Notes: generated from the letters alone by a model not told the origin. 52,558 nt of DNA from a virus (IMGVR_UViG_3300020351_000002:1-52558), one strand, 5' to 3'. Positions 1 through 13,953 are shown, counted from the first letter of the stretch. Numbers and translations: made by a program.

Positions 1-42
1 CCAAACTCCCCTGCATCCGTACCATTAGGACACCCCCACGGC

Positions 43-64
43 TTTCAACCTTTAAACGTTGAAA
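43..64. repeat. 22-bp palindromic repeat, copy 1 (TTTCAACCTTTAAACGTTGAAA)
   Basis: Read directly. A degenerate copy follows at 70-90 and overlaps the -35 box. Confidence 0.9.
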
Positions 65-84
65 CATTCTTTCAACTTTAAGAC

Positions 85-114
85 TTGACAGATAGAAATT
101 GCTCGGGATATAAA
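85..114 (+). promoter_or_regulatory. sigma70-type early promoter
   Basis: TTGACA (85-90), N18, TATAAA (109-114), upstream of an AAGGAG RBS and ATG 164. Confidence 0.7.
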
Positions 115-163
115 GGGTTTAACTTAAACAGGCCGAGGGGCCACCACAAAAGGAGCACAGGCA

Positions 164-1159
164 ATGGCACGTAAGAGTAAAAAGACTACCAGCAAGGCGC
201 GTACTTCATCGATTACCAGCAAGCCAAAGAATAAGACAAAGCAGATTAGGGCTACGGGCGTTCGCGGCGATGCTATCGCGAAGGGACAGGACCACGGGAC
301 GGCGATCACGGAGTTTCAGGCGATTGTGAACGGCGCTACCGCTGGCTTTCTATCTCAGGAAAGATTTGCGGACTCCGGACTGCGATCCATTGATATGAGC
401 TACGGCGCTGGATTGACTGGCAAGGGTACAGGCTTCAAGACCTTGACTACGAGGGAGGATAATCAGCCCTTGCACGTAGCAAGTTACACGATCTCCAGTG
501 TGCGCCATGATGACGGCAATTATCAGGCCACAGGAAGGCACCATTTGGCAGGGATCTGCTCAGACACTGGTAGCCCTACCGCGCAAGCAATCGCAGCCAG
601 TCTCCAGGCTTCAGTCTCAATGCGCTCTAGCATGAAGAGAGCCCGCGACCATGTTGCGAAGCTTGAGCGGCAAGGGAAGGTCAAGGCCACCAACAATGAA
701 GACCGTGAACAGGCTATCAGGGCGCGTGGTTCGTTCGTGCCTAACTCTGCTTTTGGCAAGGGTCTTATCCCTAGTTATGGGGCTGTCATGCTTGAACCAG
801 GACCAAAGCGCACCACAGGCAGCAACACCGTCTCCTATCCCCTGCCTACACTGAGCAAGGAGGGGCTCGAATACTTCGCAGACGCTATCAAGGCAGGTGA
901 CGCGATCATGCGACCTATTCAGCCCTGTTACGCGCCAAATAAAAAGCAAGCGCCAAAGACTGCTAGCAAGGCAATGCTTGCCCTGGGTCTGGACTGCGAA
1001 GGAGCGCGCCTTAGAGAGTTCCGCGCATCTATCGGCCTTGAAGGCAAGGGCTCAGCTACTAAGCACGCTCGACAGTGTCTAGCAGCGCTCGTAACGGCTG
1101 GACTGCTAGCACCCGACATGATCGGGGAAGTAGCAGCAGCTAGCGCGAAAGCCTCCTAG
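164..1159 (+). CDS. hypothetical basic protein, first early gene (331 aa)
   Basis: Long ORF with AAAGGAG RBS and K/R/S/T-rich N-terminus; no family recognised. Confidence 0.85.
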   Translation: MARKSKKTTSKARTSSITSKPKNKTKQIRATGVRGDAIAKGQDHGTAITEFQAIVNGATAGFLSQERFADSGLRSIDMSYGAGLTGKGTGFKTLTTREDNQPLHVASYTISSVRHDDGNYQATGRHHLAGICSDTGSPTAQAIAASLQASVSMRSSMKRARDHVAKLERQGKVKATNNEDREQAIRARGSFVPNSAFGKGLIPSYGAVMLEPGPKRTTGSNTVSYPLPTLSKEGLEYFADAIKAGDAIMRPIQPCYAPNKKQAPKTASKAMLALGLDCEGARLREFRASIGLEGKGSATKHARQCLAALVTAGLLAPDMIGEVAAASAKAS

Positions 1160-1160
1160 C

Positions 1161-1254
1161 AGGGGAGCGTCCTAGCAGGCTGCGCGCTCCTTGCGCGTGG
1201 CCTTGCTAGGTGCTGTTCAGTGCTCTGTCTTACAGGGTAGTGATTAGCACCTAG
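1161..1254 (+). promoter_or_regulatory. overlapping hairpins after gene 1 (terminator, attenuator or processing site)
   Basis: CCTAGCAGGC...GCCTTGCTAGG (1171-1210) and CTAGGTGCT...AGCACCTAG (1206-1254); no U-tract. Confidence 0.5.
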
Positions 1255-1266
1255 TCAATCGTCAAT

Positions 1267-1288
1267 CTTCAATCTTTAAAGGTTGAAA
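1267..1288. repeat. 22-bp palindromic repeat, copy 2 (CTTCAATCTTTAAAGGTTGAAA)
   Basis: Read directly; precedes RBS and ATG 1308. Confidence 0.95.
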
Positions 1289-1307
1289 CATTCAAAGGAG
1301 TGAAGAC

Positions 1308-1523
1308 ATGGAAGTAGCAATAAGCAACCTGAGCAGGGCAACGACTACCTATATAGCGTCCTGCGAGGAAGATTGCAGGGACAAGACGGACCTAGCCGTA
1401 TACCGGCTGTGCGTAGAGCATGACGACACCGTTGTGATGGGCCGATGTATCGGAACACCTATGCGAATCGTTGAAGACATGCGAGACACTGAGCGCAAGC
1501 GAATAGCCGAGATGGGGGGATGA
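1308..1523 (+). CDS. hypothetical protein
   Basis: AAAGGAG RBS; tightly packed with the next gene. Confidence 0.75.
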   Translation: MEVAISNLSRATTTYIASCEEDCRDKTDLAVYRLCVEHDDTVVMGRCIGTPMRIVEDMRDTERKRIAEMGG

Positions 1524-1524
1524 C

Positions 1525-1884
1525 ATGACCGAGGACAACGACAGATACATAGTCACCATATACGGAGACGGGGATTGCATTACGCGATTCGCTAAGTACG
1601 GCAGGCAAGGGCACATCGAAGCCATTGAGTCGGTGGATTGGGAGGTACATAACAAGCATGCAAGGCGTGCGACCGTAGAGCGAGAGCTACCAGGGGGCGA
1701 GCTAAAGATGGTCTACGAGCGGGAGCAGGACACCTATGAGGTGACCGGGGTAGACCGATCCGGCAGGCGATTTAAGCAAGCATATAAAAGCAAGTTTTTC
1801 GCTATGGGAGTCAACCTATGGCGAGGCAGCGTATGGCATGTGCGAGACGGGAAGCGAAAGCTGATCAAGCGAGTAACCAACTAA
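1525..1884 (+). CDS. hypothetical phage protein
   Basis: Coupled to the previous gene; stop lies 5 nt before repeat copy 3. Confidence 0.8.
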   Translation: MTEDNDRYIVTIYGDGDCITRFAKYGRQGHIEAIESVDWEVHNKHARRATVERELPGGELKMVYEREQDTYEVTGVDRSGRRFKQAYKSKFFAMGVNLWRGSVWHVRDGKRKLIKRVTN

Positions 1885-1889
1885 CAACC

Positions 1890-1911
1890 TTTCAACCTTT
1901 AAAAGTTGAAA
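1890..1911. repeat. 22-bp palindromic repeat, copy 3 (TTTCAACCTTTAAAAGTTGAAA)
   Basis: Read directly. Confidence 0.95.
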
Positions 1912-1929
1912 GCCAAAGGAGGAGAGAAA

Positions 1930-2172
1930 ATGGAAGGCTTACCAGTTTGGATCGTGGCCTATGGCGAAGCATATCAAGGGTACACGGTCGCCCCAGAAAT
2001 ACCTGCTCGCACTAGTTACATAGCGCAACAGATAGCAGCGCGAGAGTATGCAGAGGAAAGTCTTATATGGGGAGATGAAGTTATGACGCGGGAAGATCGC
2101 GAGGATGGATCGGTAATGTGGTCAAAGGGCTGTGATCGCGTCTACCTGCTTCCCTTGCGAGTGGAGATCTAA
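1930..2172 (+). CDS. hypothetical protein
   Basis: AAGGAGGAG RBS supports ATG 1930 rather than the TTG inside the repeat. Confidence 0.8.
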   Translation: MEGLPVWIVAYGEAYQGYTVAPEIPARTSYIAQQIAAREYAEESLIWGDEVMTREDREDGSVMWSKGCDRVYLLPLRVEI

Positions 2173-2174
2173 AG

Positions 2175-2196
2175 TTTCAACTTTTAAAAGTTGAAA
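2175..2196. repeat. 22-bp palindromic repeat, copy 4 (perfect: TTTCAACTTTTAAAAGTTGAAA)
   Basis: Perfect inverted repeat 2 nt after a stop codon. Confidence 0.95.
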
Positions 2197-2219
2197 GCTG
2201 GCAGGGAAGGGGAAATCCA

Positions 2220-2402
2220 ATGCCAATTTGGAATGAAGAGAGGCTAGATCCTGGCATCGATCTACGCCGCCAAAATGCGACGATTAGAGCACGGCTAAGC
2301 CGACAACGGATTACAGATCCACAGCCGATATGTGAAGCAAACGAGTCACCGCGAATCAACACGGTGATCGATTCTCAATCTTTAAAAGTTGAAAGGGAGT
2401 AG
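2220..2402 (+). CDS. short hypothetical protein or gene remnant reading through repeat copy 5
   Basis: GGAAGGGG RBS; the C-terminal SQSLKVERE is encoded by the repeat and the next RBS. Confidence 0.5.
   Translation: MPIWNEERLDPGIDLRRQNATIRARLSRQRITDPQPICEANESPRINTVIDSQSLKVERE
2373..2394. repeat. 22-bp palindromic repeat, copy 5 (TCTCAATCTTTAAAAGTTGAAA)
   Basis: Read directly. Confidence 0.95.
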
Positions 2403-2406
2403 AAAA

Positions 2407-2808
2407 ATGACACGCACGAAAAGGATAAAGGTCGTCAGAGATATGGCCCAGCGCATCCGATATGTCTGCGACACGCAAAGCATCTATCGTTTTCGCGACA
2501 TCGAAAGCACCATCAGGAAGCAAGAGCGCCAACACCGCAAGGGCTACGGGGCCAGTGGATACCGGGAGCCAGTCGCCGTCGCCGTCGATTACTTCATTGT
2601 TCGCTGCTTTGCCGACGCATTCCGGGTGGTGCGAGATACCGAAACGGCGCGGGATGTGCTGGATAATCTCGGTGTTCGTCTTGATTACCTGATGGCGATC
2701 TCCGTGGTCGCTCAATATGAAGCCGAGATCACCTCCTCTGTCCACGTTGGCGACCTAATGGAAGCCGCAGACACCCTCGACTATTCAGACGACATCGCGC
2801 GCAGATAG
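2407..2808 (+). CDS. hypothetical protein
   Basis: GGGAG RBS directly after the repeat; ATG 2407. Confidence 0.8.
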   Translation: MTRTKRIKVVRDMAQRIRYVCDTQSIYRFRDIESTIRKQERQHRKGYGASGYREPVAVAVDYFIVRCFADAFRVVRDTETARDVLDNLGVRLDYLMAISVVAQYEAEITSSVHVGDLMEAADTLDYSDDIARR

Positions 2809-2819
2809 CGGCGATGAAC

Positions 2820-2841
2820 TCTCAACCTTTAAAGATTGAAA
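2820..2841. repeat. 22-bp palindromic repeat, copy 6 (TCTCAACCTTTAAAGATTGAAA)
   Basis: Read directly. Confidence 0.95.
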
Positions 2842-2853
2842 AGGAGCAACGGC

Positions 2854-3081
2854 ATGACTGAAGCACAACTCACCTCAATTAAGAGGCTCGTCTCTACTTA
2901 CAACTCAACCTTAGAGCACACCAGTGTCCTGCATGACATAGACGGTACCGGGATTATGGGCCTACCACCTGGATGGATCCTTGTGAACGTGTGCCGAACC
3001 GAGGTTGGCAAGCAGCCACACCAATGCAATTCGATAATCGTACAGGCTGGCATCGCTCCCGATGGCAGCGTCTCAACCTAA
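2854..3081 (+). CDS. hypothetical protein
   Basis: AAGGAG RBS abutting the repeat; ATG 2854. Confidence 0.8.
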   Translation: MTEAQLTSIKRLVSTYNSTLEHTSVLHDIDGTGIMGLPPGWILVNVCRTEVGKQPHQCNSIIVQAGIAPDGSVST

Positions 3082-3088
3082 CAATAAT

Positions 3089-3102
3089 TCTCAACCTTTA
3101 AA
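3089..3102. repeat. left part of a split repeat copy (TCTCAACCTTTAAA)
   Basis: Right arm is absent here; a matching right arm GATTGAAA lies at 3474-3481. Confidence 0.8.
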
Positions 3103-3279
3103 AAGTCGGGCCTGTCAGTCTCTCACGAGGCGGGCGGCACGGTTCGTATATTCACGCCAAAGATGTCTAAGTTTGATGTCGTTGCCGGATGGAGCGACTG
3201 CAAGGGCGGGCGATTCGTTGTCAGGGAGACAACGAAGTCCGCGTAACTGCCCAGCGATGGGCAATGGAAGGAGAGAGAG

Positions 3280-3489
3280 ATGACCATTAGTCAAGTTGAT
3301 CGAAGCACTGTGAAGATGCTCCTTGATGAGGCGGAGGAGGCTCTGGGCCGAATCGCCATGAGGCACGGCATCGTCGTGTCTAGGAAGCACTGCACATACT
3401 CCAAGACCGAGGTCCCCGTGGCTTTCAAGTTCGTCATCCCTGAGAGGGCCGAGGACGGAACGGCTATCGACCCGATTGAAAAGGAGTGA
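3280..3489 (+). CDS. hypothetical phage protein, probably C-terminally truncated
   Basis: AGGAGAGAGAG RBS; last codons (IEKE*) come from the repeat right arm and the next RBS. Confidence 0.7.
   Translation: MTISQVDRSTVKMLLDEAEEALGRIAMRHGIVVSRKHCTYSKTEVPVAFKFVIPERAEDGTAIDPIEKE
3474..3481. repeat. right part of the split repeat copy (GATTGAAA)
   Basis: 3474-3500 matches 2834-2860 (copy 6 arm plus RBS/start) at 24/27 nt. Confidence 0.75.
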
Positions 3490-3493
3490 AGGC

Positions 3494-3784
3494 ATGACTG
3501 GATACGCATGGGTGATCACAAGGGACCGTATTGATGGCGGCATGGAAAATGGAACGGTCGGATCATGGAAAGCGGCGCTAAGTGCTGCCGAGATCCGTTC
3601 GAGCGAAGGCGGTGAGCGGTTCTCGATGTACGACGACGACGGGAACTGTTGCTACGAGGGGATCTTTGTAGGCGACGACGATGCCACCGGGTTCGAGCCT
3701 CTCAAAGACTTCGGGATACCGAACGCGGGGTGCACAGAAATACGCTACCGCAACCCGAACACCGGGAAGATGGAGCGTCTCTAA
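3494..3784 (+). CDS. hypothetical phage protein
   Basis: AAGGAG RBS, ATG 3494; YDDDG..YEG and GCTEIRY motifs typical of small phage early proteins. Confidence 0.8.
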   Translation: MTGYAWVITRDRIDGGMENGTVGSWKAALSAAEIRSSEGGERFSMYDDDGNCCYEGIFVGDDDATGFEPLKDFGIPNAGCTEIRYRNPNTGKMERL

Positions 3785-3785
3785 A

Positions 3786-3807
3786 ACTCAACCTTTAAAG
3801 ATTGAAA
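3786..3807. repeat. 22-bp palindromic repeat, copy 7 (ACTCAACCTTTAAAGATTGAAA)
   Basis: 1 nt after a stop codon. Confidence 0.95.
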
Positions 3808-3814
3808 AGAAGAC

Positions 3815-4129
3815 ATGAATAACGAACACAAGCCTAAGCCACGGCGCTCGCCGTGGAGAATCCATCGCCTTGAAAAAGGCTTTGAGATCTTTTGGAGAGA
3901 CGACGGCGATGGGGTCGAGTCTTACACTTACGTCGCAACAGCCCGCCAACACAGCAACGCCAGACGCATAGCCGCTGCGCCTGAAATGCTGGCTGTATTG
4001 GTGGCGGCGCGGGCAAGCATCTCCGACGCCCTGAGCCCAGACCCGTCGACAGACTGGAGAGACAGCCTAACCGACGCACTAGACGCAATTAACGCAACCA
4101 TTAACGACGCAACCAAGGAGGAAGCATGA
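3815..4129 (+). CDS. hypothetical phage protein (NARxIAAAPE-type motif)
   Basis: NARRIAAAPEMLAVL motif is common in phage early hypothetical proteins. Confidence 0.8.
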   Translation: MNNEHKPKPRRSPWRIHRLEKGFEIFWRDDGDGVESYTYVATARQHSNARRIAAAPEMLAVLVAARASISDALSPDPSTDWRDSLTDALDAINATINDATKEEA

Positions 4130-4623
4130 ACTTCGCAACATACCTACCCATACCACCAGACCTTCTAGAGCTTCCCAAAGCCACGGCGATTCGTGGCTGG
4201 ATAGGGCTAGACCACCGACTGCTAGATGGCACACGGATCAGACCGAGAATTAGGACAGCCGTGAACGCTATCGCATGGGCGCAGGCTGGGGGCACGGCCC
4301 CTATGGTTGTCCAGGAAGGCTACGTCACACGCAAGGAAGGCGAGACGACTCACACAGCAGAAGAGTTTGTGGAGCAATACCGTCGATCACGCGAAGAGAT
4401 AGACATTCTGATCTACGAGGTACGAACTGCCGCGGGAGCAAGTATAGGCATACCCGTAGCAAAGGACGCAGCCGACAGCGAAGAGGGCAGGATAGAGCTT
4501 GTCATGTCGATGATTGACAAAAACCTGCTCATTGAACTGGGATTAACGATCACTCTCCTCAGAGAGGAGCGCGGCCCGCGATACAGGGCAAAAAACTTTC
4601 AATCTTTAAAGGTTGAAAGCTAA
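4126..4623 (+). CDS. hypothetical protein reading through repeat copy 8
   Basis: ATGA overlap and AAGGAGG RBS; C-terminal FQSLKVES is encoded by the repeat. Confidence 0.75.
   Translation: MNFATYLPIPPDLLELPKATAIRGWIGLDHRLLDGTRIRPRIRTAVNAIAWAQAGGTAPMVVQEGYVTRKEGETTHTAEEFVEQYRRSREEIDILIYEVRTAAGASIGIPVAKDAADSEEGRIELVMSMIDKNLLIELGLTITLLREERGPRYRAKNFQSLKVES
4597..4618. repeat. 22-bp palindromic repeat, copy 8 (TTTCAATCTTTAAAGGTTGAAA)
   Basis: Read directly. Confidence 0.95.
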
Positions 4624-4644
4624 AAGCACCTTGCACATGTCAGG

Positions 4645-4673
4645 TTGACAGCCTGCAATCTATAGAGTAAGGT
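4645..4673 (+). promoter_or_regulatory. sigma70-type promoter
   Basis: TTGACA (4645-4650), N17, TAAGGT (4668-4673); the -35 lies in a small TGTCA-N3-TGACA dyad. Confidence 0.65.
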
Positions 4674-4702
4674 ATACACTCAACGTCAAGGAAGGGGTTC
4701 CA

Positions 4703-5542
4703 ATGACACCAATAACAAACAAGGGCGTTCGCTCTGTAATTGTCTGGCTCGGTTTTGATCCAGACAGTGACGATTTAATAGACAGCCTCCGATACACCAA
4801 GAGCGGAAGGCTCAGGCGGCTGTTTGGCAAGAACTTCAAGTGTGAGATGGGGGAATTGCAGGCTGTACTGACTGCGGTATTACACCTGTCGCCATGGAAA
4901 GAGGCTGGCTTCAATACCTGCGCCTTTGCTGGGGCATGTGCCGAGGTCTGCATCAAGACGACCGGACAGTGCGTGACAAACACGGCGCTTCGCTCTCGCA
5001 TCTGTAAGACGCTCTACTTCTTTCTATTCCGAGAGGAGTTTCTCGATCAGTTGCGGATGGAGATTCGCCAGCACATTTACATGGCGAAGATCAAGGGCAT
5101 GCGAGCAGCTATCAGGCTGAACGCTACGAGCGACATTCTATGGGAGCGCACGGGGATCATCGATGAGTTCCCAGAGGTGCAGTTTTACGACTACACGAAG
5201 ATCCCTTTAGAGAAGCGCAACCCACCACCTAACTACCACCTGACGTTCAGCCTAAGCGAGGACCCGAAGTCTATGGGTAGGGCCTTGTCGTATCTGGAGG
5301 CGGGACACAACGCCGCGATGGTAGTGCAGACGCTTGACGGGATGAAGAGGGGCGACGCCAAGAGGGCATCCCAAAGTCTTGTGGAGGCTGGCTCATGGAA
5401 CGGATACCCAACCTTCTCTGGTGATAACAACGACATCAGGTTTTGGGATCCACCGGGAAGCTGGATTGTCCTGTACGCCAAGGGACCGGCGACAAAGGAC
5501 ACCTCTGGGTTTGTTCAACGCCTACCAATTATCAACCTTTAA
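4703..5542 (+). CDS. GP88-like phage protein (Cys-cluster, radical-SAM-like)
   Basis: NTCAFAGACAEVC, RLNATSD, QFYDYTK and NYHLTFS motifs characteristic of the phage GP88 family. Confidence 0.8.
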   Translation: MTPITNKGVRSVIVWLGFDPDSDDLIDSLRYTKSGRLRRLFGKNFKCEMGELQAVLTAVLHLSPWKEAGFNTCAFAGACAEVCIKTTGQCVTNTALRSRICKTLYFFLFREEFLDQLRMEIRQHIYMAKIKGMRAAIRLNATSDILWERTGIIDEFPEVQFYDYTKIPLEKRNPPPNYHLTFSLSEDPKSMGRALSYLEAGHNAAMVVQTLDGMKRGDAKRASQSLVEAGSWNGYPTFSGDNNDIRFWDPPGSWIVLYAKGPATKDTSGFVQRLPIINL

Positions 5543-5551
5543 AGATTGAAA
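5530..5551. repeat. 22-bp palindromic repeat, copy 9 (TATCAACCTTTAAAGATTGAAA)
   Basis: Its central TAA is the stop codon of the GP88-like gene. Confidence 0.95.
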
Positions 5552-5566
5552 CCAGAAGGAGGAAGC

Positions 5567-5740
5567 ATGAGTGAAGACGAATACATTTACATAAGCGTAA
5601 AGCTCTACCTCAAGGCAGGGCAAACGATGGAGTCTGTCCAAGAGATCGTGCAGGAAATGGACTACTCGTTTGCTCACAAGGAGTTGGTTGAGCATGAAAT
5701 CATAGAGATAACGGACACATCCATAGAGGGGGAAGTATGA
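5567..5740 (+). CDS. hypothetical acidic protein
   Basis: AAGGAGG RBS, ATG 5567. Confidence 0.75.
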   Translation: MSEDEYIYISVKLYLKAGQTMESVQEIVQEMDYSFAHKELVEHEIIEITDTSIEGEV

Positions 5741-6015
5741 GCAACATAAGGAGAATGTTCGAACTTTCCACCGTGCATGTTCCGGGGCCCGATCCCGACT
5801 GGGGCGACCTGAAGGTCAAGGACCATGAGTATGGGTGGGTCGTCTGGGTCTACGACCCCGACGACAACCTGTCGCCTGAATGGATGAAGCCGATCATGAA
5901 GTTGGCCTACAGCAAGAACTGCGCCCTCATCTTGTTCGACTCTGACGCTGGCGAGTGGGAGGACACCGAACTGCACAGCCTAACGCAGTTCCAAGATCTC
6001 TGGGAGGAAGTATGA
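5737..6015 (+). CDS. hypothetical protein, DUF5983-like
   Basis: LSTVH, EYGWVVW and ILFDSDA motifs; ATGA overlap. Confidence 0.6.
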   Translation: MSNIRRMFELSTVHVPGPDPDWGDLKVKDHEYGWVVWVYDPDDNLSPEWMKPIMKLAYSKNCALILFDSDAGEWEDTELHSLTQFQDLWEEV

Positions 6016-6272
6016 GCAATCTATCCCCTGACTGGGGGAACTACTACGGCACCTGCATGGACTGCGGAGGGAGGTACCACGCTAGTGGTACGGAGCATTG
6101 CAACTGCGAAGAGTGTGAGAGATGTGAGGGAATCACAGCACCTGACGACCTGGACGAAGGGACCTGTCTTGGGTGCTGGGAAATGGGAGATGTGTGCTGC
6201 CCTGTCTGCAAGGAGTGGACGTTTAAAGAGCACCTTGAAGATGGGGCTTGCCCCGACTGTGTAACCCATTAA
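6012..6272 (+). CDS. Cys-rich putative zinc-binding protein
   Basis: Several CxxC pairs; GGAGG RBS; ATGA overlap. Confidence 0.75.
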   Translation: MSNLSPDWGNYYGTCMDCGGRYHASGTEHCNCEECERCEGITAPDDLDEGTCLGCWEMGDVCCPVCKEWTFKEHLEDGACPDCVTH

Positions 6273-6277
6273 CAGAC

Positions 6278-6299
6278 CTTCAACCTTTAGAGATTGAAG
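6278..6299. repeat. 22-bp palindromic repeat, copy 10 (CTTCAACCTTTAGAGATTGAAG)
   Basis: Slightly degenerate; 5 nt after a stop codon. Confidence 0.9.
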
Positions 6300-6320
6300 G
6301 CGTAGAAAGGAGAGGAAGGC

Positions 6321-6647
6321 ATGGCCGCTGTGGACAATGAATATATAAGCGCTCGAATTGCCGAGATAAGCGTCAGAGAGAAGGTCTCTGGCCTTAAAAA
6401 AACTATTGAAAGAGAAACCAAAAGAATAGAGGAGGCTGCACAGGTCGTTGATATGCAAATACAACAGCTATTAGAGGATATGAAGGGGGGCGACCCTTGT
6501 TCCGCTAACAGCTGGGGAGAGCCAGGTTTTAGGGCAATGCGTCAGGAACTAGACAGGCTTTATGGAAAAGTAAACTTTTACTCCGGGATGATGATGTCCC
6601 TAAGTCTGGTGAGCAACCACATAGACGTTCATTGGAAGGGGTTTTGA
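6321..6647 (+). CDS. hypothetical coiled-coil protein
   Basis: AAGGAGAGG RBS; helical heptad pattern. Confidence 0.8.
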   Translation: MAAVDNEYISARIAEISVREKVSGLKKTIERETKRIEEAAQVVDMQIQQLLEDMKGGDPCSANSWGEPGFRAMRQELDRLYGKVNFYSGMMMSLSLVSNHIDVHWKGF

Positions 6648-6648
6648 T

Positions 6649-6867
6649 ATGGGTCCAATATCAATGAGTCTAGTAACAGCAAAAAGGATTGAGACATTTC
6701 TAAGCTGGCACCTTGAGGCTGGTACTCCAGAGTTTATGAGGCCCGAAAAGGTTGATAGGGAGTCCGCAAAGAACCTTCTTATTACGATAAGAGAGGCTCT
6801 TAGGGAGCTGGATGAGAACGAGTCTCTGTGGATCGAGATTGGTGTTGGTCCAGAGGGGGCTGGGTAA
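6649..6867 (+). CDS. hypothetical protein
   Basis: Tightly packed in the operon. Confidence 0.7.
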   Translation: MGPISMSLVTAKRIETFLSWHLEAGTPEFMRPEKVDRESAKNLLITIREALRELDENESLWIEIGVGPEGAG

Positions 6868-7034
6868 TGGATTACTGCAACATTACCGAAGTTGAAGAGT
6901 GCGATCAGTGCGACCGAGCCAGCAGTGGCCGAGAGTATGGATTCAAGTGCGAAGCCAATCAGTGCGGGAACTGTGGCGACACCTACCGGGACTGCGAAGG
7001 CTCTTGCAACAACGGCTGCTCAGGGGCTTCCTAA
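6867..7034 (+). CDS. small Cys-rich protein
   Basis: TAATG stop/start coupling at 6865-6869; multiple Cys. Confidence 0.6.
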   Translation: MDYCNITEVEECDQCDRASSGREYGFKCEANQCGNCGDTYRDCEGSCNNGCSGAS

Positions 7035-7043
7035 ACAGAGAGG

Positions 7044-7253
7044 ATGGACAGCGGCATGACAGTTATAGAGCTGGCTGCGTACAGGAAAGCAAAGTACGGG
7101 GACACAGAGGAACGGGATGAGGGTGTGATCTACAAATGGACTTGTTGCGTATGCAAGTGCTTTGCCTACAAACTGCTTGAGGACATCCCAAAAAAGTGTC
7201 CCGTCTGCAGGAGTTATATAGACCAGATAGAGGTTTATGAAGGAGATGAGTGA
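7044..7253 (+). CDS. rubredoxin-like zinc-ribbon protein
   Basis: WTCCVC...KCPVC pattern. Confidence 0.65.
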   Translation: MDSGMTVIELAAYRKAKYGDTEERDEGVIYKWTCCVCKCFAYKLLEDIPKKCPVCRSYIDQIEVYEGDE

Positions 7254-7624
7254 TGCCAGGAAAACTACTGAAGACAGAAGAAGAAGAGGCTGCTTTCGTT
7301 AAGGACTACGAAAAGCTGGTGTCCGTCAAAGACCTTGCTAAGAAGTGGGGGTGTACTCGACAAACAGCGAGCGCATCACTTAAGAGGCTTGGTGTTAAGG
7401 TCCAAAGGCCGCGAGGGAAGGATGCCAATGGCCGAAACTGGAAGGGCGACTACCACCCAATGCTTGGCAAGTGGCCAGACTCTTTGGTCGCAAAGGACAT
7501 ATTGCTAAGGACTGGTAAGAAGGTTTCCAGAGCGGCTGTTTGTCAGGCTAGAAAGCGAAGAGGGATCAAGGCACTGTCAGAAGCACAGCATGAAGCCATG
7601 AAGGCCCGGATAGACGGGGGCTAG
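7250..7624 (+). CDS. putative double-HTH DNA-binding protein
   Basis: SVKDLAKKWGCTRQTASASLKRLG and LGKWPDSLVAK...VSRAAVCQARKRRGI HTH-like segments. Confidence 0.7.
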   Translation: MMPGKLLKTEEEEAAFVKDYEKLVSVKDLAKKWGCTRQTASASLKRLGVKVQRPRGKDANGRNWKGDYHPMLGKWPDSLVAKDILLRTGKKVSRAAVCQARKRRGIKALSEAQHEAMKARIDGG

Positions 7625-7641
7625 ACAGCGAGACCCTCTCA

Positions 7642-7914
7642 GGCTAGTTTCAACCTGTCGCCAAGACGAGGTCTTACCCAAGACCCTCATGGCCTCAAAG
7701 CAGCGTCCACCTGGGCCTTCTCCCCCCTTCCTCCGGGTGGGCGCTCTTTGAAGGCGATACCCCGCAAAGCAAAGCCCCCCATGGCTAAAACCAAGGAGGG
7801 CTTGCCGGTGCCTGCCAACAGTGTGGCGAACCACAAAGGTTCAAATGGCTGGAACCATGCAACAAAGCAGGGGACTCGCAAGAAAACCTGCTTGGTGCGT
7901 AGTAGAAACTAGCC
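7642..7914 (+). ncRNA. candidate structured ncRNA A (~273 nt), class unknown
   Basis: Perfect closing helix GGCTAGTTTC (7642-7651)/GAAACTAGCC (7905-7914) enclosing several hairpins; G-U pairs favour the + strand. Confidence 0.6.
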
Positions 7915-7921
7915 AAAAGCA

Positions 7922-7951
7922 TTGACGAGGGCAAGGTAGTGAGCGTAGCCT
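7922..7951 (+). promoter_or_regulatory. possible promoter between ncRNA A and B
   Basis: TTGACG, N18, TAGCCT. Confidence 0.35.
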
Positions 7952-7984
7952 CGCATCACTGCTCCACCAAAGAGCAGCCATAAT

Positions 7985-8263
7985 TTTCCGTCGTGTGGCC
8001 CCTGTTCAAAGGGCGAAACTGGCGGAGAAAGGACGCGCAAGAGGAGCCCTGCTCCGAGTTTGAACCCACCAGAACACAAGGTCTTATCAAGGCTTATGGC
8101 TTCGACAAAGAAGTCGCAAGGTCAACAGGTAACAACGCACCCCCGCCTGTTAAGTGCTCTGAGGGAAAGACCGCCTATCTAAAAGTGACCAGGATAGGAA
8201 TGGTTGAAACGCGCAGTCCAAAGGTGACCCAACCTAGCAAGGGTCACAGGATGGGGGTGCGTT
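7985..8263 (+). ncRNA. candidate pseudoknotted ncRNA B (~280 nt), class unknown
   Basis: Loop AACGCACCCCC (8134-8144) is perfectly complementary to GGGGGTGCGTT (8253-8263); many local stems. Confidence 0.55.
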
Positions 8264-8284
8264 TGGGGGGTAAGAGTTGGTCGT

Positions 8285-8313
8285 TTGACCTTTGAAACAG
8301 GTCTCTATATTAT
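8285..8313 (+). promoter_or_regulatory. sigma70-type promoter for the recombination module
   Basis: TTGACC (8285-8290), N17, TATTAT (8308-8313). Confidence 0.7.
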
Positions 8314-8427
8314 TGATTTTGTCAGTGTCTTACTGGCGTTGGGGCGTTAGTTATTTAAGGCGGGACAGTTGTTGTCCTGTCCGCAACCAATGATGGCGAT
8401 TGTCATCATTTTTTAGGAGAGAGAGAT

Positions 8428-9423
8428 ATGCCTGCTTATTTTGAAACTGGAATGTACGTTGGTGCCACCCCCTGGCACGGTCTTGGAACCTATGTTGGTG
8501 AAGAGGGTCTTAGGACGAAGGGTGCTTTAAAAAGAGGGGACCTCCTCTGGACTGTGAGCAAGCGGCCTTTGTTTACGGTACCGGAGGGCGGTGCCCTTGC
8601 GGCAGCGTCCATGCCGTCTGTCTGCCTGGAGGACTACCGGGCAATCATGCGGGACACCGACAACTCTGCATATGGGATTGTGAAGAAGGACTACACGCTC
8701 TTCCAGAACGAAGAGATGGGTGCCTTCGCAGACGATCTTATTGACGACGGCAGCCTGCGTATCCACACCGCTGGGTCGCTTAACGGTGGTCGTCAGGTGT
8801 GGTTGCTTGGCAAGGTTGGGTCTACCGAGATCATCCCCAAGGACAAGGTAGACCACTACCTCTTCTTGTATACGGGGCACGATGGGTCTACAGCCTTCCG
8901 CTGCATGTTCACAACGGTGCGTGTGGTTTGTGCAAACACGGCTGCTGTTGCACTGCGGAACTCTCGCGGGCAAAGCGTCAGCATTCGGCACACGAAGAAC
9001 ATGTCGCTTAAGTCTGGCGAGGCTGCTCGTGTCCTGGGCATTTCTCAGAAGGCATTTGCTGAGTCGGATGAGTTCATGCGAAAGCTTGCCGATGTTCCGA
9101 TGCCTCAGTCTGACTGGATTGATTTCTGCATGGAGCTATTCCCCACCCCGGTGGCAGACGAGGACGGCAATGTAAGCAAGCGTGCCATGTCTATCTCGGA
9201 GAACAACCGAAGCCAGCTGACGCGCCTGTTTGTTGGTGGTCGAGGTACTGAGATCCCAGGGGTTCGCGGAACTGGCTGGGCTGCATACAACGCACTAACT
9301 GAGTTCGCTGGCTATCACCGCACATCTCGCGGTGGCAAGGGCAAGCGCTTTGAGTCTCTGATGATGGGCTCTGGTGCGAAGTTCGTTCAGAACGGTACGA
9401 ACATCCTTCGCGGACTCGTTTAG
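8428..9423 (+). CDS. DUF932 family phage/plasmid-like protein (TIGR03299-like)
   Basis: PWHGLG, TAGSLNGGRQVW, HDGS, VRVVCANT, IRHT and GTGWAAYNALTE motifs. Confidence 0.9.
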   Translation: MPAYFETGMYVGATPWHGLGTYVGEEGLRTKGALKRGDLLWTVSKRPLFTVPEGGALAAASMPSVCLEDYRAIMRDTDNSAYGIVKKDYTLFQNEEMGAFADDLIDDGSLRIHTAGSLNGGRQVWLLGKVGSTEIIPKDKVDHYLFLYTGHDGSTAFRCMFTTVRVVCANTAAVALRNSRGQSVSIRHTKNMSLKSGEAARVLGISQKAFAESDEFMRKLADVPMPQSDWIDFCMELFPTPVADEDGNVSKRAMSISENNRSQLTRLFVGGRGTEIPGVRGTGWAAYNALTEFAGYHRTSRGGKGKRFESLMMGSGAKFVQNGTNILRGLV

Positions 9424-9424
9424 T

Positions 9425-9446
9425 TCTCAACTTTTAAAGGTTGAAA
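9425..9446. repeat. 22-bp palindromic repeat, copy 11 (TCTCAACTTTTAAAGGTTGAAA)
   Basis: 1 nt after the DUF932 stop and before the nuclease RBS. Confidence 0.95.
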
Positions 9447-9458
9447 AAGGGAGGGTTC

Positions 9459-10370
9459 ATGGAACTGCTAACGCAGACAGAGCTAGTCACGTTCAGCCGA
9501 TGTGAAGAGCGCCATAACATTCGCTACAACAGGCGGCTTACTCCCTTTGAGGAGCATCCAGCCTTGGCGATGGGAAGCGCTGTCCACGAAGGGCTTGAGC
9601 ATGGCTCAGTGAAAGCTGCGTTAGCGGTCATGGACGCCTCTGGAGACAGTGAATGGCCTGGATCGAGCGCGTCTGACAGGGTGCGCCGGTCCCAGGTCGC
9701 AGCCATGGTCGGAGGCGCTTTAGAGCGGTGGTCCTGCTGGCCTGACAAACACGAGGTTCAGTTTGAGATACCTCTCAGGCACCCGGACACAGACGTTCAT
9801 AGCGCAGAGCACAGGCTTAGCGGTGTGTTTGATGGTGTCTGGGAGGGGACCTACCCAGGGATGCCTGGAGAGTGGGTGTTGGGGGAGTGGAAGACTGCAT
9901 CCATTGTAAATAGGGACTATATCGCCCGTCTTGAGATCGACTTTCAGGTAACCACTTACTTGTACGCAGCGAGCGTCCTGTACCAGAGACCTGTTAGGAA
10001 GATGGTCTATCGGGTGATTAAAAAGCCAACGATTAGGCAGAAGAAGACAGAGAGTGCGAACGACTATGCAGAGCGCGTCCGCTTGGACTATCTGGAGAGA
10101 CCAGAGCACTACTTCTTTGATCAGGTAGTGACGCGAACAGATGCCCAGTTAATCGAGTGGAAGCGCCAAGCATGGGCCACGCACAGGAGAATACTTGAGA
10201 TTCAGAGAGGCGAGGCTGTGGCCATAAGGTCTACACAGTCCTGTCTGAGCAGAGGACGGTGCCCATACTTTGATCTTTGTACTGGTTCCGTCATAGAGAG
10301 CGCCTACCGGCGACTAAACACAAAGCACAGAGAGATTAAGAAGGAGAATAACAATGGGAATGATTCCTAA
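9459..10370 (+). CDS. PD-(D/E)XK exonuclease, AddB/Cas4-like (probable Fe-S cluster)
   Basis: FSRC, GSAVH, GVFDG, EWKT, QVTTY and C-terminal CxxxxxCPYFDLC; GGGAGG RBS. Confidence 0.85.
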   Translation: MELLTQTELVTFSRCEERHNIRYNRRLTPFEEHPALAMGSAVHEGLEHGSVKAALAVMDASGDSEWPGSSASDRVRRSQVAAMVGGALERWSCWPDKHEVQFEIPLRHPDTDVHSAEHRLSGVFDGVWEGTYPGMPGEWVLGEWKTASIVNRDYIARLEIDFQVTTYLYAASVLYQRPVRKMVYRVIKKPTIRQKKTESANDYAERVRLDYLERPEHYFFDQVVTRTDAQLIEWKRQAWATHRRILEIQRGEAVAIRSTQSCLSRGRCPYFDLCTGSVIESAYRRLNTKHREIKKENNNGNDS

Positions 10371-11088
10371 AGAGCCGACTCCGCCAAGCACTAGGATGGC
10401 GGATTATTCCTGGCTCTTCTACGGCAACGTAGGAGTTGGGAAGACAACATTGGCAAACCAGTTTCCTAGTCCAATATTTGTTGCAACGGAGCAGGGGACA
10501 ACGGCAATGCACGCTGCGTCTATTCCAGTGGGAAGCTGGGAAGACCTTAAGCTTGTGCTTGAGGCTCTCAGGACAGAGAAGCACGCTTACAAAACCGTCA
10601 TCCTTGACACCGTTGATGTGGCCTACGCGCTCTGTTCCACATATGTGTGCGAGGCAAACGGGTGGACCGATGTTTCCGATGGGGATTTTGGCCTGGGCTG
10701 GCGAGCGCTTGGGAGGGAGTGGACGAACATGATCGCCAAGTTAAGAACGCTGCCCATGTGTACGGTGTTTATCGGCCATGAGAAGTCTGAAGAAATTGTT
10801 GAACGAATTGGATCGAAGAACATGGCGACCGGGCGACAGAGGATTACTTCAGCGCTGCCCAGAAGCGCTAGGGCGACCTTGCACGCGGCCATGGACTTCA
10901 TTCTTCGCTGTGAGCTGACAGAGGATAACGAAAGGATCCTAAGGACTCAGCCAATCGAGAACAAGAGAGAGCGAATTGAGGTTAAGGCCCGTGGACACGA
11001 AGGGGCAATGCTTCCAGAGGTGGTGGAGATGAGCTTCACCTCTTTACAGGGGGCTTTTAAGAACAGCTTTGTTAAGGAGCAAAAATGA
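10354..11088 (+). CDS. AAA_24 / Sak4-like recombinase ATPase
   Basis: Walker A GNVGVGKT, Walker B VILDT, FIGHE; sits between a nuclease and an SSB. Confidence 0.85.
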   Translation: MGMIPKEPTPPSTRMADYSWLFYGNVGVGKTTLANQFPSPIFVATEQGTTAMHAASIPVGSWEDLKLVLEALRTEKHAYKTVILDTVDVAYALCSTYVCEANGWTDVSDGDFGLGWRALGREWTNMIAKLRTLPMCTVFIGHEKSEEIVERIGSKNMATGRQRITSALPRSARATLHAAMDFILRCELTEDNERILRTQPIENKRERIEVKARGHEGAMLPEVVEMSFTSLQGAFKNSFVKEQK

Positions 11089-11603
11089 CTACTGAAATCG
11101 AAGACATCTTCAACAACATCTCCCCCCCCGAAGAAGCTGATGGTGGGTCTAGAAAAAAGCGCCGAAAGGACGACGCGGATAAGATCCCAGACGGGGTCTA
11201 TCAAGCAAAGATTGTCGAGTTCTCAACCTTCCACAAAGACGACGATTACGGTAACCGGGACTACTTTACGGTCATGTGGTTTCAAGTAACGACTGGGCCA
11301 GCTGCGGGTGCAGAGGTTCAAAGCTTTTCATCCGTAGGCCCAAAGTCAGTACCGTTTATCAAGAGAGCCATTAAAAAGGTTACTGGTAAGGAGCCGTCCT
11401 GGTCTGATCTCTACGACAAGGAAATGGGATCGACTGGAAGCATTCAGTTCAAGCTTGTTGGAAAGCATGTTGAGATCCAGCAAAAGACCAATGGTAAGTA
11501 CGCGAACATCTACATAAACAAAGTCATCGACAGTTCGGGCGAACAAGGCTCAGCCTCGCCAGCAAACGACGACAGTGACAGGAATGTAGACGATTTATTC
11601 TAG
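11085..11603 (+). CDS. single-stranded DNA-binding protein (DUF669-like)
   Basis: IPDGVYQAKI motif, acidic C-terminal tail ending DDLF, position after the Sak4-like gene. Confidence 0.75.
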   Translation: MTTEIEDIFNNISPPEEADGGSRKKRRKDDADKIPDGVYQAKIVEFSTFHKDDDYGNRDYFTVMWFQVTTGPAAGAEVQSFSSVGPKSVPFIKRAIKKVTGKEPSWSDLYDKEMGSTGSIQFKLVGKHVEIQQKTNGKYANIYINKVIDSSGEQGSASPANDDSDRNVDDLF

Positions 11604-11607
11604 GAAT

Positions 11608-11846
11608 CAGCGCACGCTCCTTCCAAAGGCCCGTAGCTTCTGTGCGCTGTACCCACGACATGCCAAGTATGTCTTGAAGAAGTTCAGGTCTATGCCTGCC
11701 GGGGTCGAGCTAGGACTCGACAGGGTTAACGGACACCTGCTTAGAAGGTGGTCAAACCGGCATCTTCATTTCCGTAGAGGGGGTTGGGTATTTACTTCTT
11801 TCTACCAACTCCCTTGCAGTCACCCGCACAGGGAGGCACAGCGGGC
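11608..11846 (+). ncRNA. candidate structured intergenic RNA C / leader
   Basis: Consecutive stems: CAGCGCAC/GTGCGCTG, GACATGC/GTATGTC, GTCGAG/CTCGAC, CACCT/AGGTG, AGGGGGTTGG/CCAACTCCCT, CCCGC/GCGGG. Confidence 0.4.
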
Positions 11847-11890
11847 GGAAGCATCAGGTGCCTCAACTAACAACCAACCAGGAGAGAAAC

Positions 11891-12421
11891 ATGAAGACGG
11901 TTGACCCAAAGGATTACCGCTCCCTTTCAATGTGGGCGATTGATCTTGTTAGAAACAACCCATCGATGACAGCAGAGGGCTTTGATGACGAGTGTCAGAG
12001 GTGGGGAGTTGTTTGTGGCAGAGGTCCTTTTTACAAAGGCGTAAAGGCATACAGGGAAGAGCATGGGCTTGGAGCGCTTCCTCGCGGCGGGAAGCTGACT
12101 GGCAAGGCCCCGAAGCCAGCGAACTACCAGAGCGAAGGACAAGATGTCTTAGGCGGAACGACTAGAGGCCCAGAGAGGAGGCTTGTTAGGGGTGGGGCTG
12201 TTGCTGTTGAACAAAGTTCCAACGAGCTGGTCTCCAGGAAAGACAGGCTTATCCTTTCCGAGATCAATGAACACGCCGCCAGAATGATTGCCTGGATGAG
12301 GAAGTACAATGTAAGGGTTATCACCATGGAGTCGGAGAGCCAAGAGGTAACCCTCTCTAACGAGCCGTCCGTCAGTCGTCAGATTGTCCCCTCTCCACAC
12401 TTCACAGTCCAGAAGAAGTAG
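11891..12421 (+). CDS. hypothetical protein
   Basis: AGGAGAG RBS, ATG 11891. Confidence 0.8.
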   Translation: MKTVDPKDYRSLSMWAIDLVRNNPSMTAEGFDDECQRWGVVCGRGPFYKGVKAYREEHGLGALPRGGKLTGKAPKPANYQSEGQDVLGGTTRGPERRLVRGGAVAVEQSSNELVSRKDRLILSEINEHAARMIAWMRKYNVRVITMESESQEVTLSNEPSVSRQIVPSPHFTVQKK

Positions 12422-13003
12422 GTGGTCAAAGTGCAAAACGAAGGAGAGCTTCTTGCCAATCCAGGCCCCGTGGAGGCCGATGTCCACTGCGACAGAACCC
12501 TGGAAAGACCAAAAGGCCGGTCCTTGCGACAGGCAAGGGAGGACCTTATGGCTAACATCGACAAAGGGGTTGTGTGCCCCTGCTGTGGGCAGCTGGCCAA
12601 GGTCTACAAAAGAAAACTCAATAAGAAGATGGCCGAGTGGCTTGTCTGGCTTGTGGGTAAATACCTACACAGTACCGGGCACATACCCTCCAACTGGATA
12701 GACGTTAAAGAAAGCCGGGTTAGAGGAGGAGATTACGCGAAGCTAGCTCTTTGGGGTCTCGCGAAGAGGAAGCCCGTCGAAGAGGGGGCTAAGTCAAGAA
12801 CCTCTGGCCTATGGAAGCCAACCCCAATTGGAATCGACTTTGCCATTGGCAGAAGACGGGCCCCGTCACACCTGTTCGTCTTCAACAACTCTGTTGTGGG
12901 CGAGTCAGAAACCACCATCTCAATAAAAGAGGCTATGGGAGAGGGGTTTGACTATCAGGACGTTTACTACTGGAGCAGCGGGGAGGACATAAGAACGCCA
13001 TGA
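12422..13003 (+). CDS. hypothetical protein with CPCCG zinc knuckle, possible winged-helix DNA-binding protein
   Basis: CPCCGQ..KVYKR and SGLWKPT motifs; start uncertain. Confidence 0.75.
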   Translation: MVKVQNEGELLANPGPVEADVHCDRTLERPKGRSLRQAREDLMANIDKGVVCPCCGQLAKVYKRKLNKKMAEWLVWLVGKYLHSTGHIPSNWIDVKESRVRGGDYAKLALWGLAKRKPVEEGAKSRTSGLWKPTPIGIDFAIGRRRAPSHLFVFNNSVVGESETTISIKEAMGEGFDYQDVYYWSSGEDIRTP

Positions 13004-13209
13004 AGCATAAGCATAAATACGGCCCGTGGAAGCTCTACAAGCCGTGGGATAAGAGGAAAATGGGCGACAAGGAGTTTGTCGCCAGTCAGAGGATGCCGCC
13101 GTTTTGGTACCAGTCTTGTGAGTGCGGCTTTGAAAACTGGATAAGGAAAGAGTCTAAGCCCAAGGCGAGCTTCAAGTTCATGGCGCACTGGGGGTCAAGG
13201 TCTCTCTAG
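13000..13209 (+). CDS. small basic hypothetical protein
   Basis: ATGA overlap; last gene before the strand switch. Confidence 0.65.
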   Translation: MKHKHKYGPWKLYKPWDKRKMGDKEFVASQRMPPFWYQSCECGFENWIRKESKPKASFKFMAHWGSRSL

Positions 13210-13211
13210 AC

Positions 13212-13568: not shown

Positions 13569-13576
13569 GTCTGCTC

Positions 13577-13951: not shown

Positions 13952-13953
13952 GT

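Follow-up and report, generated by a model that had tools for sequence, protein, structure and literature searches.

Short palindromic connectors at sites of early-gene exchange in an uncultured marine phage

The early genes of the virus record IMGVR_UViG_3300020351_000002, analysed here over its whole length of 52,558 bp (the window), are arranged as small cassettes set apart by copies of a 22-bp palindrome, which we call the dyad. Comparison with natural relatives shows that whole cassettes are deleted, inserted, replaced and re-ordered at the dyads and at a second type of connector, a box holding the Shine-Dalgarno (SD) sequence and start codon. An initial annotation of the sequence had taken the dyads for junctions at which accessory early genes are gained, lost and shuffled in an integron-like array. 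The junction role is supported by the strain comparison, through the joints 2388->2836 and 1295->1920 and the related locus L195, whereas an integron-type mechanism is unsupported. The dyad is better described as a different element, free of promoter and terminator, that acts like the known PeSL cassettes of T4-type phages.

Comparing window positions 1-11000 with Logan contigs from four marine DNA runs, each of a different study, yielded 11 joints, six of which have both ends in a dyad or an SD/start box. The joint 2388->2836 skips 447 nt, the exact spacing of the dyad copies at 2373 and 2820, and removes g6 in register; two studies contain it, and its shorter side spans 243-255 nt. Joint 1295->1920, present in three runs, removes g2-g3 between copies 1267 and 1890, its crossover lying in the shared SD past the dyad. 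A copy that is split in the window is restored to its unsplit form by joint 3102->3474, and joints 4119->5731, 5557->6003 and 5742->6003 all fall in the four 19-nt SD/start boxes. Connectors make up about 5% of the region, and measured against all bases the enrichment of breakpoints in them is very large.

Insertion, replacement and re-ordering are seen in further relatives. Locus L195 reads g1, dyad, g4, dyad, a new gene for 159 amino acids, dyad, g5, with g2-g3 absent, and its extra one-gene cassette has identical dyad copies on both sides. In L193, g13-g14 are replaced by three other genes between the dyad at 5530 and the box of g15; in L162 the genes from g4 to part of g10 are replaced, beginning directly after the dyad at 1890. 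Between L101 and L105, which are 92-98% identical in nucleotide sequence, insertions, deletions and replacements end 13 nt past one dyad, 17 nt past another and directly at a third, and others end at SD boxes. Blocks of homology between the window and L100 stop at a dyad (window 1874 with L100 2445; window 6274 with L100 3316). A common gene order among relatives would have spoken against shuffling; the order differs between lineages, the g15 homologue of L100 standing before its g11 homologue, unlike in the window.

The connectors and the other elements of the region are as follows.

43-64, plus strand: dyad copy 1, with one mismatch; 5' of promoter P1 and not before an SD.
71-82, plus strand: left half-copy, abutting the -35 hexamer of P1.
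85-114, plus strand: sigma-70-type promoter P1 (TTGACA, 17-18 nt, ATATAA/TATAAA), before g1 (164-1159); found by reading and missed by the promoter rule set.
1267-1288, plus strand: dyad copy 2, followed by an SD and an ATG at 1308; it bounds on the left the g2-g3 cassette that variant strains lack.
1890-1911, plus strand: dyad copy 3, 5 nt past the g3 stop; g4 ATG at 1930.
2175-2196, plus strand: dyad copy 4, a perfect palindrome; here L195 has its extra 159-aa gene between two copies.
2373-2394, plus strand: dyad copy 5, within the 3' end of g5 (stop 2400-2402) and bounding the g6 cassette on the left.
2820-2841, plus strand: dyad copy 6, bounding the g6 cassette on the right; joint 2388->2836 is in register between it and copy 5.
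3089-3102, plus strand: left 14 nt of the split copy.
3103-3473, plus strand: foreign insert of 371 nt within the dyad, with the truncated gene fragment g8 (3280-3489).
3474-3481, plus strand: right 8 nt of the split copy (GATTGAAA), then an SD and the g9 ATG at 3494.
3786-3807, plus strand: dyad copy 7, 1 nt past the g9 stop; g10 ATG at 3815.
4115-4133, plus strand: SD/start box; joint end 4119.
4597-4618, plus strand: dyad copy 8, coding for the last residues of g11 and followed by P2.
4647-4675, plus strand: sigma-70-type promoter P2, before a GP88-family gene (4703-5542); the arrangement of dyad and P2 is kept in L100 and L162.
5530-5551, plus strand: dyad copy 9; the GP88-family gene stops at its central TAA.
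5556-5574, plus strand: SD/start box; joint end 5557.
5726-5744, plus strand: SD/start box; joint ends 5731 and 5742.
6001-6019, plus strand: SD/start box before g15; joint end 6003 and start of the block common to L100 and L193.
6278-6299, plus strand: dyad copy 10, with three mismatches; the L100 homology block stops at 6274.
7253-7624, plus strand: g20, with an HTH_23 match below cut-off; the sole DNA-binding protein of the genome recognisable by Pfam, and a candidate binder only.
8285-8313, plus strand: sigma-70-type promoter P3, from the promoter search, before the DUF932 gene.
9425-9446, plus strand: dyad copy 11, between the DUF932 gene (8428-9423) and the PD-(D/E)XK nuclease gene; a copy stands at the same junction in L099, L126 and L100.
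9459-11088, plus strand: PD-(D/E)XK exonuclease (9459-10370) and AAA_24/Sak4-type ATPase (10354-11088), by Pfam; a likely recombination module.
52551-52558, plus strand: truncated dyad at the right end of the record.

A cassette runs in the order stop codon, dyad, SD, start codon and one to three small, translationally coupled genes. All cassettes share one orientation, are promoterless and stand behind the host-type promoters P1 and P2. Within the intervals the genes overlap through ATGA-type stop/start junctions, and the dyad stands between intervals; the one to three small genes per interval described in the initial annotation were found again in this reading of the architecture. The 22-bp consensus has six exact plus-strand sites (1890, 2175, 2373, 2820, 4597 and 9425), and allowing up to three mismatches gives 11, the additional five being those at 43, 1267, 3786 and 5530 (one mismatch each) and 6278 (three). 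The earlier figure of 11 intact copies is therefore right only if one to three mismatches are allowed. In 100 dinucleotide shuffles neither the exact nor the three-mismatch search gave a match, so that none is expected by chance.

The dyads are confined to 18% of the genome: across the whole 52,558-bp record no site with up to three mismatches lies beyond 9446, as had been claimed, and the sole trace there is the truncated copy at the extreme right end. That copy and the half-copy at 71-82 are additions to the earlier list, and the split copy it contained (3089-3102 with 3474-3481) is real, its unsplit form occurring in related strains. Six copies follow a stop codon closely, with stops ending at 1884, 2172, 2808, 3784, 6272 and 9423 and the dyad beginning after 5, 2, 11, 1, 5 and 1 nt; three copies reach back into the 3' end of the gene before them. 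Nine of the 11 (1267, 1890, 2175, 2373, 2820, 3786, 5530, 6278 and 9425) have an SD and an ATG 7-23 nt further on. Reading of the sequence thus reproduced both placements, the six copies 1-11 nt past a stop and the nine before a start, and added an SD to each of the latter. The copies at 43 and 4597 lie 20-30 nt 5' of the -35 hexamers of P1 and P2 (TTGACA at 85 and 4647). The dyad-free SD/start box has four copies in the window against 0.05 expected.

A host promoter or an intrinsic terminator inside the dyad was rejected, since neither was found in a search of positions 1-14000. Five promoter-like sites were returned there, none at a dyad, and the one terminator-like match that overlaps a dyad is on the minus strand (1912-1889). 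Reading of the sequence likewise gave no -10 hexamer 16-18 nt past TTGAAA and no run of T after the dyad.

The phage itself is an uncultured marine phage of 52.6 kb and is not a T4-like myovirus. The window is the whole IMG/VR record, of linear class and estimated to be 97% complete, and the genes recognised in it through Pfam and PHROGs include those for a portal and adaptor of SU10 type, a major head protein, a large terminase, a DnaB-type helicase and a Dam-type methylase. The Pfam search covered the 80 open reading frames (ORFs) of the whole record at E <= 0.01-0.05, many of them without any family, and gave no integrase or partition gene. Downstream of the early region stand the DUF932 gene, the PD-(D/E)XK nuclease and the Sak4-type AAA_24 ATPase, in that order. 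At the nucleotide level, window positions 1-10000 have no near match among 50,697 deposited phage genomes; the nearest cultured terminase, that of Roseobacter phage CRP-7, is 28% identical, and DNA of the window is present in marine metagenomes from at least seven studies. No tRNA was detected, and no Rfam family at gathering score. A scan of 185,579 species, one genome each, found no prophage relative (the sole match had 25% identity), an absence that is not proof. By its gene content the phage thus appears to carry no sign of lysogeny.

Relatives were found through their DUF932 and AAA_24 proteins, and several carry a dyad version of their own. L100, whose DUF932 is 75% identical, carries CTCAACAC(A/T)TAAACGTTGAG in 11 copies, all 11 oriented with transcription and 10 directly before an SD. 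L105 has seven canonical copies of TAAC(C/T)C(T/C)TAGAAGTTAAAA and further variants, L101 has two canonical copies, and the L234 lineage has three to four dyad copies; nine further relatives have no dyad in the parts examined. An inverted dyad copy is kept 5' of DUF932 in L105, L101, L102 and L104. A motif scan of IMG/VR returned 14 loci with the motif at a single place each, the known relative L099 excepted. A scan of metagenome contigs returned at least 118 stretches, from which BLAST to the window recovered four true relatives (L126, L162, L193 and L195); for two further loci among the metagenome matches listed, the BLAST match was limited to 27 nt around one dyad.

Translated searches (tblastn) with g1-g19 gave 14 matches in total among 22 related loci, the same loci in which DUF932, the nuclease and AAA_24 are at 50-97% amino acid identity. 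The early region is hyperplastic, having almost no genes in common with the early regions of its relatives. Two coding features recur in it. The N-terminal domain of g11 (4126-4623) is conserved in all dyad-rich lineages (window, L162, L100, L101 and L105); its C-terminus differs and is dyad-encoded in the window and in L100, at unequal distances from the domain. A model of g11 (predicted local distance difference test, pLDDT, 75.7) gave no Foldseek match in the PDB at E <= 0.001. The peptide NARL(I/M)AAAPE is a conserved coding motif in otherwise different small early genes (3955-3995; L162 at about 470-510; L193 1174-1214), and the replacement breakpoint 3955 falls within it, inside a gene.

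Of the known systems the PeSL of T4-type phages comes closest, by analogy; it combines a strong sigma-70-like early promoter with a stem-loop terminator (available sections of PMC2839356, Arbiol et al. 2010, and PMC4122927, Comeau et al. 2014). As the same sections describe them, PeSLs resemble the present case in being short, repeated, regulatory-type motifs beside small non-essential ORFs of a hyperplastic region (here 11 copies and about 20 small ORFs); the insertions, deletions and replacements of close relatives break at them, and exchange is attributed to recombination between the repeats. Mini-circles from exchange between neighbouring motifs have been shown for PeSLs (same sections). 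Unlike a PeSL, the dyad has no promoter or plus-strand terminator and the cassettes depend on P1 and P2. The PeSL-bearing phages are T4-like whereas this one has an SU10-type portal and adaptor, and the window adds a second connector, the SD/start box. The dyad is thus PeSL-like in its working but not a PeSL, because the defining promoter and terminator are absent.

We propose that the dyad is the standard connector of a hyperplastic early-gene region, and that cassettes would be exchanged by in-register recombination between short repeats during co-infection or replication. The catalyst would probably be the PD-(D/E)XK exonuclease together with the Sak4-type annealing ATPase, both encoded by the phage, rather than a site-specific recombinase; in function this would be the PeSL principle of T4-type phages, carried by a different, promoter-less element. 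An exonuclease paired with a Sak4-type ATPase forms a single-strand-annealing module in other phages. Crossover points vary, falling after dyad position 16 in 2388->2836, in the SD 8-13 nt past the dyad in 1295->1920 and after position 14 in 3102->3474. Dyad-free boxes recombine too, and the whole pattern fits homology-guided exchange between any short standard sequence. Taken whole, as connector architecture, junction role and in-register short-repeat recombination by the phage module, this is the explanation that we consider probable, with appreciable doubt.

Several observations weigh against this account or narrow it. Relative to gene boundaries, about half of which bear a dyad, the enrichment of breakpoints at dyads is modest, because dyads sit at gene boundaries, where viable insertions and deletions must break anyway; the weight therefore rests on the in-register dyad-to-dyad joints and on the insertion between two identical copies. 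Gains and losses break at the connectors in part of the cases: against the six joints with both ends in a dyad or box stand four outside any connector (3995->4103, 6866->6937, 8574->8651 and 9539->9876) and one, 1923->3955, with a single end in a connector, beside a dyad. Joint 3102->3474 has only 25 nt on its shorter side. Logan contigs are assembled and drop rare forms and circles, all joints are of the kind that skips window sequence, and several, flagged 'between: not known', may be replacements and not deletions. That the nuclease and Sak4 module performs the exchange is probable from the known roles of these families.

The 371-nt insert within the split dyad also belongs on this side of the argument. 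It is homologous over its full length to a segment of the unrelated viral contigs L252-L254 (87-89% identity over 3245-3475), and g8 is a truncated foreign fragment, because the gene continues in those contigs. The insert is joined through 2-nt microhomologies only, with no dyad bases lost, and homologous exchange between copies cannot explain it, because its source has no dyad homology. Its place hints that the dyad may also be a breakage-prone or cleaved site. The position could equally be due to chance, since much of the little intergenic sequence there is consists of dyads.

Most of the unknown genes of phages, among them genes for host takeover and anti-defence, reside in the early regions, and the turnover of these genes has been detailed for few phage groups. 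The dyad provides a simple, searchable and lineage-specific tag of exchange units in a marine phage group found in metagenomes from at least seven studies. Like attC, this tag could be used to harvest the accessory early-gene pool from viromes, and it allows gene-exchange communities to be tested among phages that share it. The PeSL principle is extended past T4-like myoviruses, and any standardised junction sequence would seem able to act as a shuffling point.

What the dyad does between exchanges can be approached from its sequence, which is laid out as 8+6+8 bp. Across 35 aligned dyads the bases A5, A6, T11, A12, T17, T18 and A20 never vary. Among 32 distinct dyads, drawn from three lineages, positions 7 and 16 form C-G in 22 and U-G in four and do not pair in six; positions 8 and 15 do not pair in 16. 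Pair 4-19 is never unpaired, with C-G in 23 and U-A in nine, the switch being between lineages, and pair 2-21 is U-A in 10 and C-G in eight. These 32 dyads uphold the earlier remark that arm mismatches go without compensation. The copies of the window are predicted to fold as RNA hairpins of -1.2 to -7.3 kcal/mol, those of L100 at -3.9 to -12.8 and the canonical ones of L105 at -1.3 to -1.6, and because these energies range so widely, what each lineage keeps is a sequence of about 20 nt with a dyad-symmetric core and not a stable hairpin. Such lineage-specific versions with a symmetric core (AAC...TA...GTT) point to recognition by a lineage-specific factor. The copies of the window are near-palindromic, and orientation can be read only in L100 and L105. 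Two frames meet a stop codon in the triplets T11-A12-R13 and T18-R19-A20, and the third is closed in the L105 version; the element therefore ends any upstream reading frame after a swap.

From these features, the everyday role may be that of a protein site on double-stranded DNA, of operator or roadblock type, which is our tentative first choice. A protein-bound hairpin on the early mRNA beside the ribosome site is possible. A linker without a factor, closing two or three frames with its TAA/TAG and TGA/TAA triplets, seems less likely, and something else improbable.

An operator or stoperator network has also to be weighed as an explanation of the whole pattern. The dyads would then bind a phage regulator, for which g20 is the candidate, that shuts off or tunes early transcription through a block to host RNA polymerase at many intergenic sites, and exchange would be a by-product of the repetition. 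We regard this as doubtful yet worth keeping in view; the junction role could stand beside it. The same variants occur independently in the two half-sites, the mismatches at pairs 7-16 and 8-15 being uncompensated in the 32 dyads. C-A and U-G both occur, so neither strand is favoured for RNA pairing, the positions invariant across lineages are dyad-symmetric, and the canonical L105 copies are too weak for a stable RNA hairpin. Copy 43, the half-copy at the P1 -35 and copy 4597 adjoin the two early promoters, and the inverted copy 5' of DUF932 in four relatives points the same way. Each lineage has its own version, as do subcluster-specific stoperators and ESAS repeats (available sections of PMC3203893). 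On the other hand, the distances from dyad centre to promoter, by reading, are unequal (about -67, -75 and -57), the asymmetric centre is fixed, with the L100 copies in one orientation in 11 of 11 cases, and the L234 lineage has few copies. Lysogeny also lacks signs: there is no integrase, and the 185,579 species genomes hold no prophage relative.

The candidate regulator is placed by sequence and model. Its HTH_23 score is 23.0 bits against a cut-off of 24.6, and it is modelled (pLDDT 75.2) as two three-helix units tethered by a linker, an arrangement that would suit an operator-binding protein. Foldseek gave no PDB match at E <= 0.001; the weak top rows are bipartite helix-turn-helix proteins (Tc3, Mos1 and Pax; E 0.25-1.2), and with a best E of 0.25 the fold matches are not significant. 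Homologues of g20 also occur in L228, L230 and L236, whose examined parts have no dyad.

Stoperators themselves, in Cluster A mycobacteriophages, are 13-bp asymmetric sites spread genome-wide in temperate phages and bound by the immunity repressor (available sections of PMC9283540 and PMC3203893). The dyads share with them the character of many short, lineage-specific intergenic sites oriented with transcription, and differ in occupying 18% of a genome with no sign of lysogeny, in which g20 is a candidate repressor.

Nearer in placement are the start-associated sequences (SAS) of Cluster K mycobacteriophages, asymmetric 13-bp elements that contain the ribosome site and lie 3-7 bp from the start, and the ESAS just 5' of them, imperfect inverted repeats with 17-bp arms and a 4-13 bp spacer, for which the authors favour a DNA-binding protein (available sections of Pope et al. 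2011, PMC3203893). According to those sections, both occur in the non-structural half of the genome only, in one orientation and just 5' of starts, often of unrelated genes, as the dyads do; likewise, ESAS mismatches argue against RNA pairing and the consensus differs by subcluster. SAS/ESAS are thus the closest system in placement and in the argument against RNA pairing, by analogy and not by membership. The dyad excludes the SD and stands 7-23 nt from the start, arms and spacing differ, phages and hosts are unrelated, and the sections of PMC3203893 covered describe no role in gene exchange. The T1-like phage TLS has 18 intergenic 21-nt repeats, oriented with transcription and 5' of starts, in a phage without an RNA polymerase of its own, their function being unknown (available sections of PMC11447400). 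Unlike the dyads these are direct and not palindromic, lie about 76 nt from starts and occur genome-wide, and the same sections describe no link to exchange.

An RNA element would be a small hairpin on the polycistronic early mRNA, placed between the stop of one cistron and the ribosome site of the next, with a conserved, recognised loop U-A-R-A, bound or cut by a phage or host protein and setting stability, processing or translation of each cassette. As the explanation of the whole it is unlikely in our view. The position of nine of 11 copies 7-23 nt before a start codon, on the coding strand, suits it, as does the orientation of all copies with transcription wherever a lineage has an asymmetric centre. 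From lineage to lineage the stem covaries (pairs 4-19 and 2-21) around a constant loop (T11, A12 and A14), although this covariation possibly reflects one event and a dimer site gives the same pattern. Stability divides the lineages: L100 copies fold at -3.9 to -12.8 kcal/mol, and variant copies of L105 and L100 alter the centre so as to lengthen the stem, with G-U pairs on the plus strand, whereas four of the 11 window copies have a C-A closing pair and reach only -1.2 to -2.4 kcal/mol, and the canonical L105 stem is just 4-5 bp and AU-rich. C-A and U-G mismatches are about equally common, with no strand bias; copy 43 lies upstream of P1; and there is no Rfam match.

A further family of AT-rich hairpins, unrelated to the dyad (TTATTTATT, 4-6 nt, AATAAATAA), stands immediately 5' of SDs in L105, at 1432, 2426, 2719, 4469 and 6072, with a member in L101 at 1033; the one at 4469 is fused to a canonical dyad. 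This occupation of the same place before SDs by an unrelated hairpin would favour an RNA element.

Other factors were considered for the dyad and set aside. RNase III sites were rejected because the stems are too short for this enzyme. N4-like hairpin promoters served by a virion RNA polymerase were rejected too, the 2574-aa ORF of the window having no Pfam match above cut-off and the canonical L105 stems having 4-5 AU-rich pairs and an 8-nt loop. T7-type promoters were rejected as Pfam found no single-subunit RNA polymerase. Sites for IHF, Fis and CtrA and dif sites, compared by eye with their consensus sequences only, did not fit.

The description 'integron-like' held for the architecture and failed for the mechanism. 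In an integron array, too, promoterless cassettes of one orientation follow a promoter, as they follow P1 and P2 here; each is closed by an imperfect palindrome, and their content varies between close relatives. Integron attC sites, however, are 57-141 bp long, carry their binding sites as two pairs, have extrahelical bases in the folded bottom strand and end in RYYYAAC/GTTRRRY (available sections of PMC3053210); the dyad has 22 bp, a single pair of arms and no extrahelical bases. The window has no attI, and the earlier statement that no integrase is recognisable agrees with the Pfam search of the 80 ORFs, which found no tyrosine or serine recombinase, transposase, HUH enzyme or RNA polymerase. 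Crossovers vary, and dyad-free boxes recombine.

That the dyad is an active recombination site, attC-like or hairpin, nicked or cut by an unrecognised early phage protein or a host integron- or Xer-type enzyme, is nevertheless conceivable at a low probability. Were it so, abundant marine phages would run an integrase-less 'integron' for early host-takeover genes, and foreign DNA such as the 371-nt fragment could be captured without homology. In a dedicated site-specific system, a 'phage integron', the dyad would be a minimal att-type site, used as duplex or folded single strand and cut by such an enzyme. The window arms, YYYYAAC/GTTRRRR, match the attC ends (PMC3053210, available sections) at six of seven positions each, and L100 copy 4061 matches them fully; this likeness is post hoc, among many possible comparisons, and worth about 9 of 10 bits. 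The arms do enclose a central region, and the foreign fragment sits exactly centre-right in one dyad with no dyad bases lost. Joint 2388->2836 is compatible with exchange between positions 16/17 (the G/TT position), but it is the one of three dyad-associated joints that fits a fixed crossover there. Joint 1295->1920 crosses in the SD past the dyad, the left junction of the insert follows position 14, and three joints lie in dyad-free SD/start boxes. With these discrepancies, a phage integron is very improbable.

Elsewhere in the window, a 2574-aa ORF on the minus strand of the structural block (19431-27155) is presumably a giant virion or ejection protein; it has no Pfam match above cut-off, no PHROG or PDB-sequence match and no tblastn match in the 50,697 deposited phages. 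Between the last early gene and P3 lies an ORF-poor stretch of about 660 nt (7625-8284), 79-87% identical in nucleotide sequence to L099/L126 and with no Rfam match, a candidate non-coding RNA or structured regulatory region. A 39-nt intergenic element at 11724-11762 is about 90% identical to L252-L254, contigs that are otherwise unrelated; long homology blocks with L099 and L100 end there, and it is a possible mosaic boundary signal. Near the start of the early region, at 51806-51995, arrays of CTAG-containing 8-9-mers comprise tandem repeats of TACCTAGT type followed by three copies of AGCCTACTAG. Such arrays also occur in L100 (9290-9410), L105 (194-283) and L229 (1328-1424), and related ones precede the P3-type promoter of L100 and stand 5' of it in other relatives as well; iterons or a regulator array are possible readings. 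Just 5' of the truncated dyad at the right end, the plus strand carries a run of G (G7 T G6 T G3; 52507-52530) that could form a G-quadruplex.

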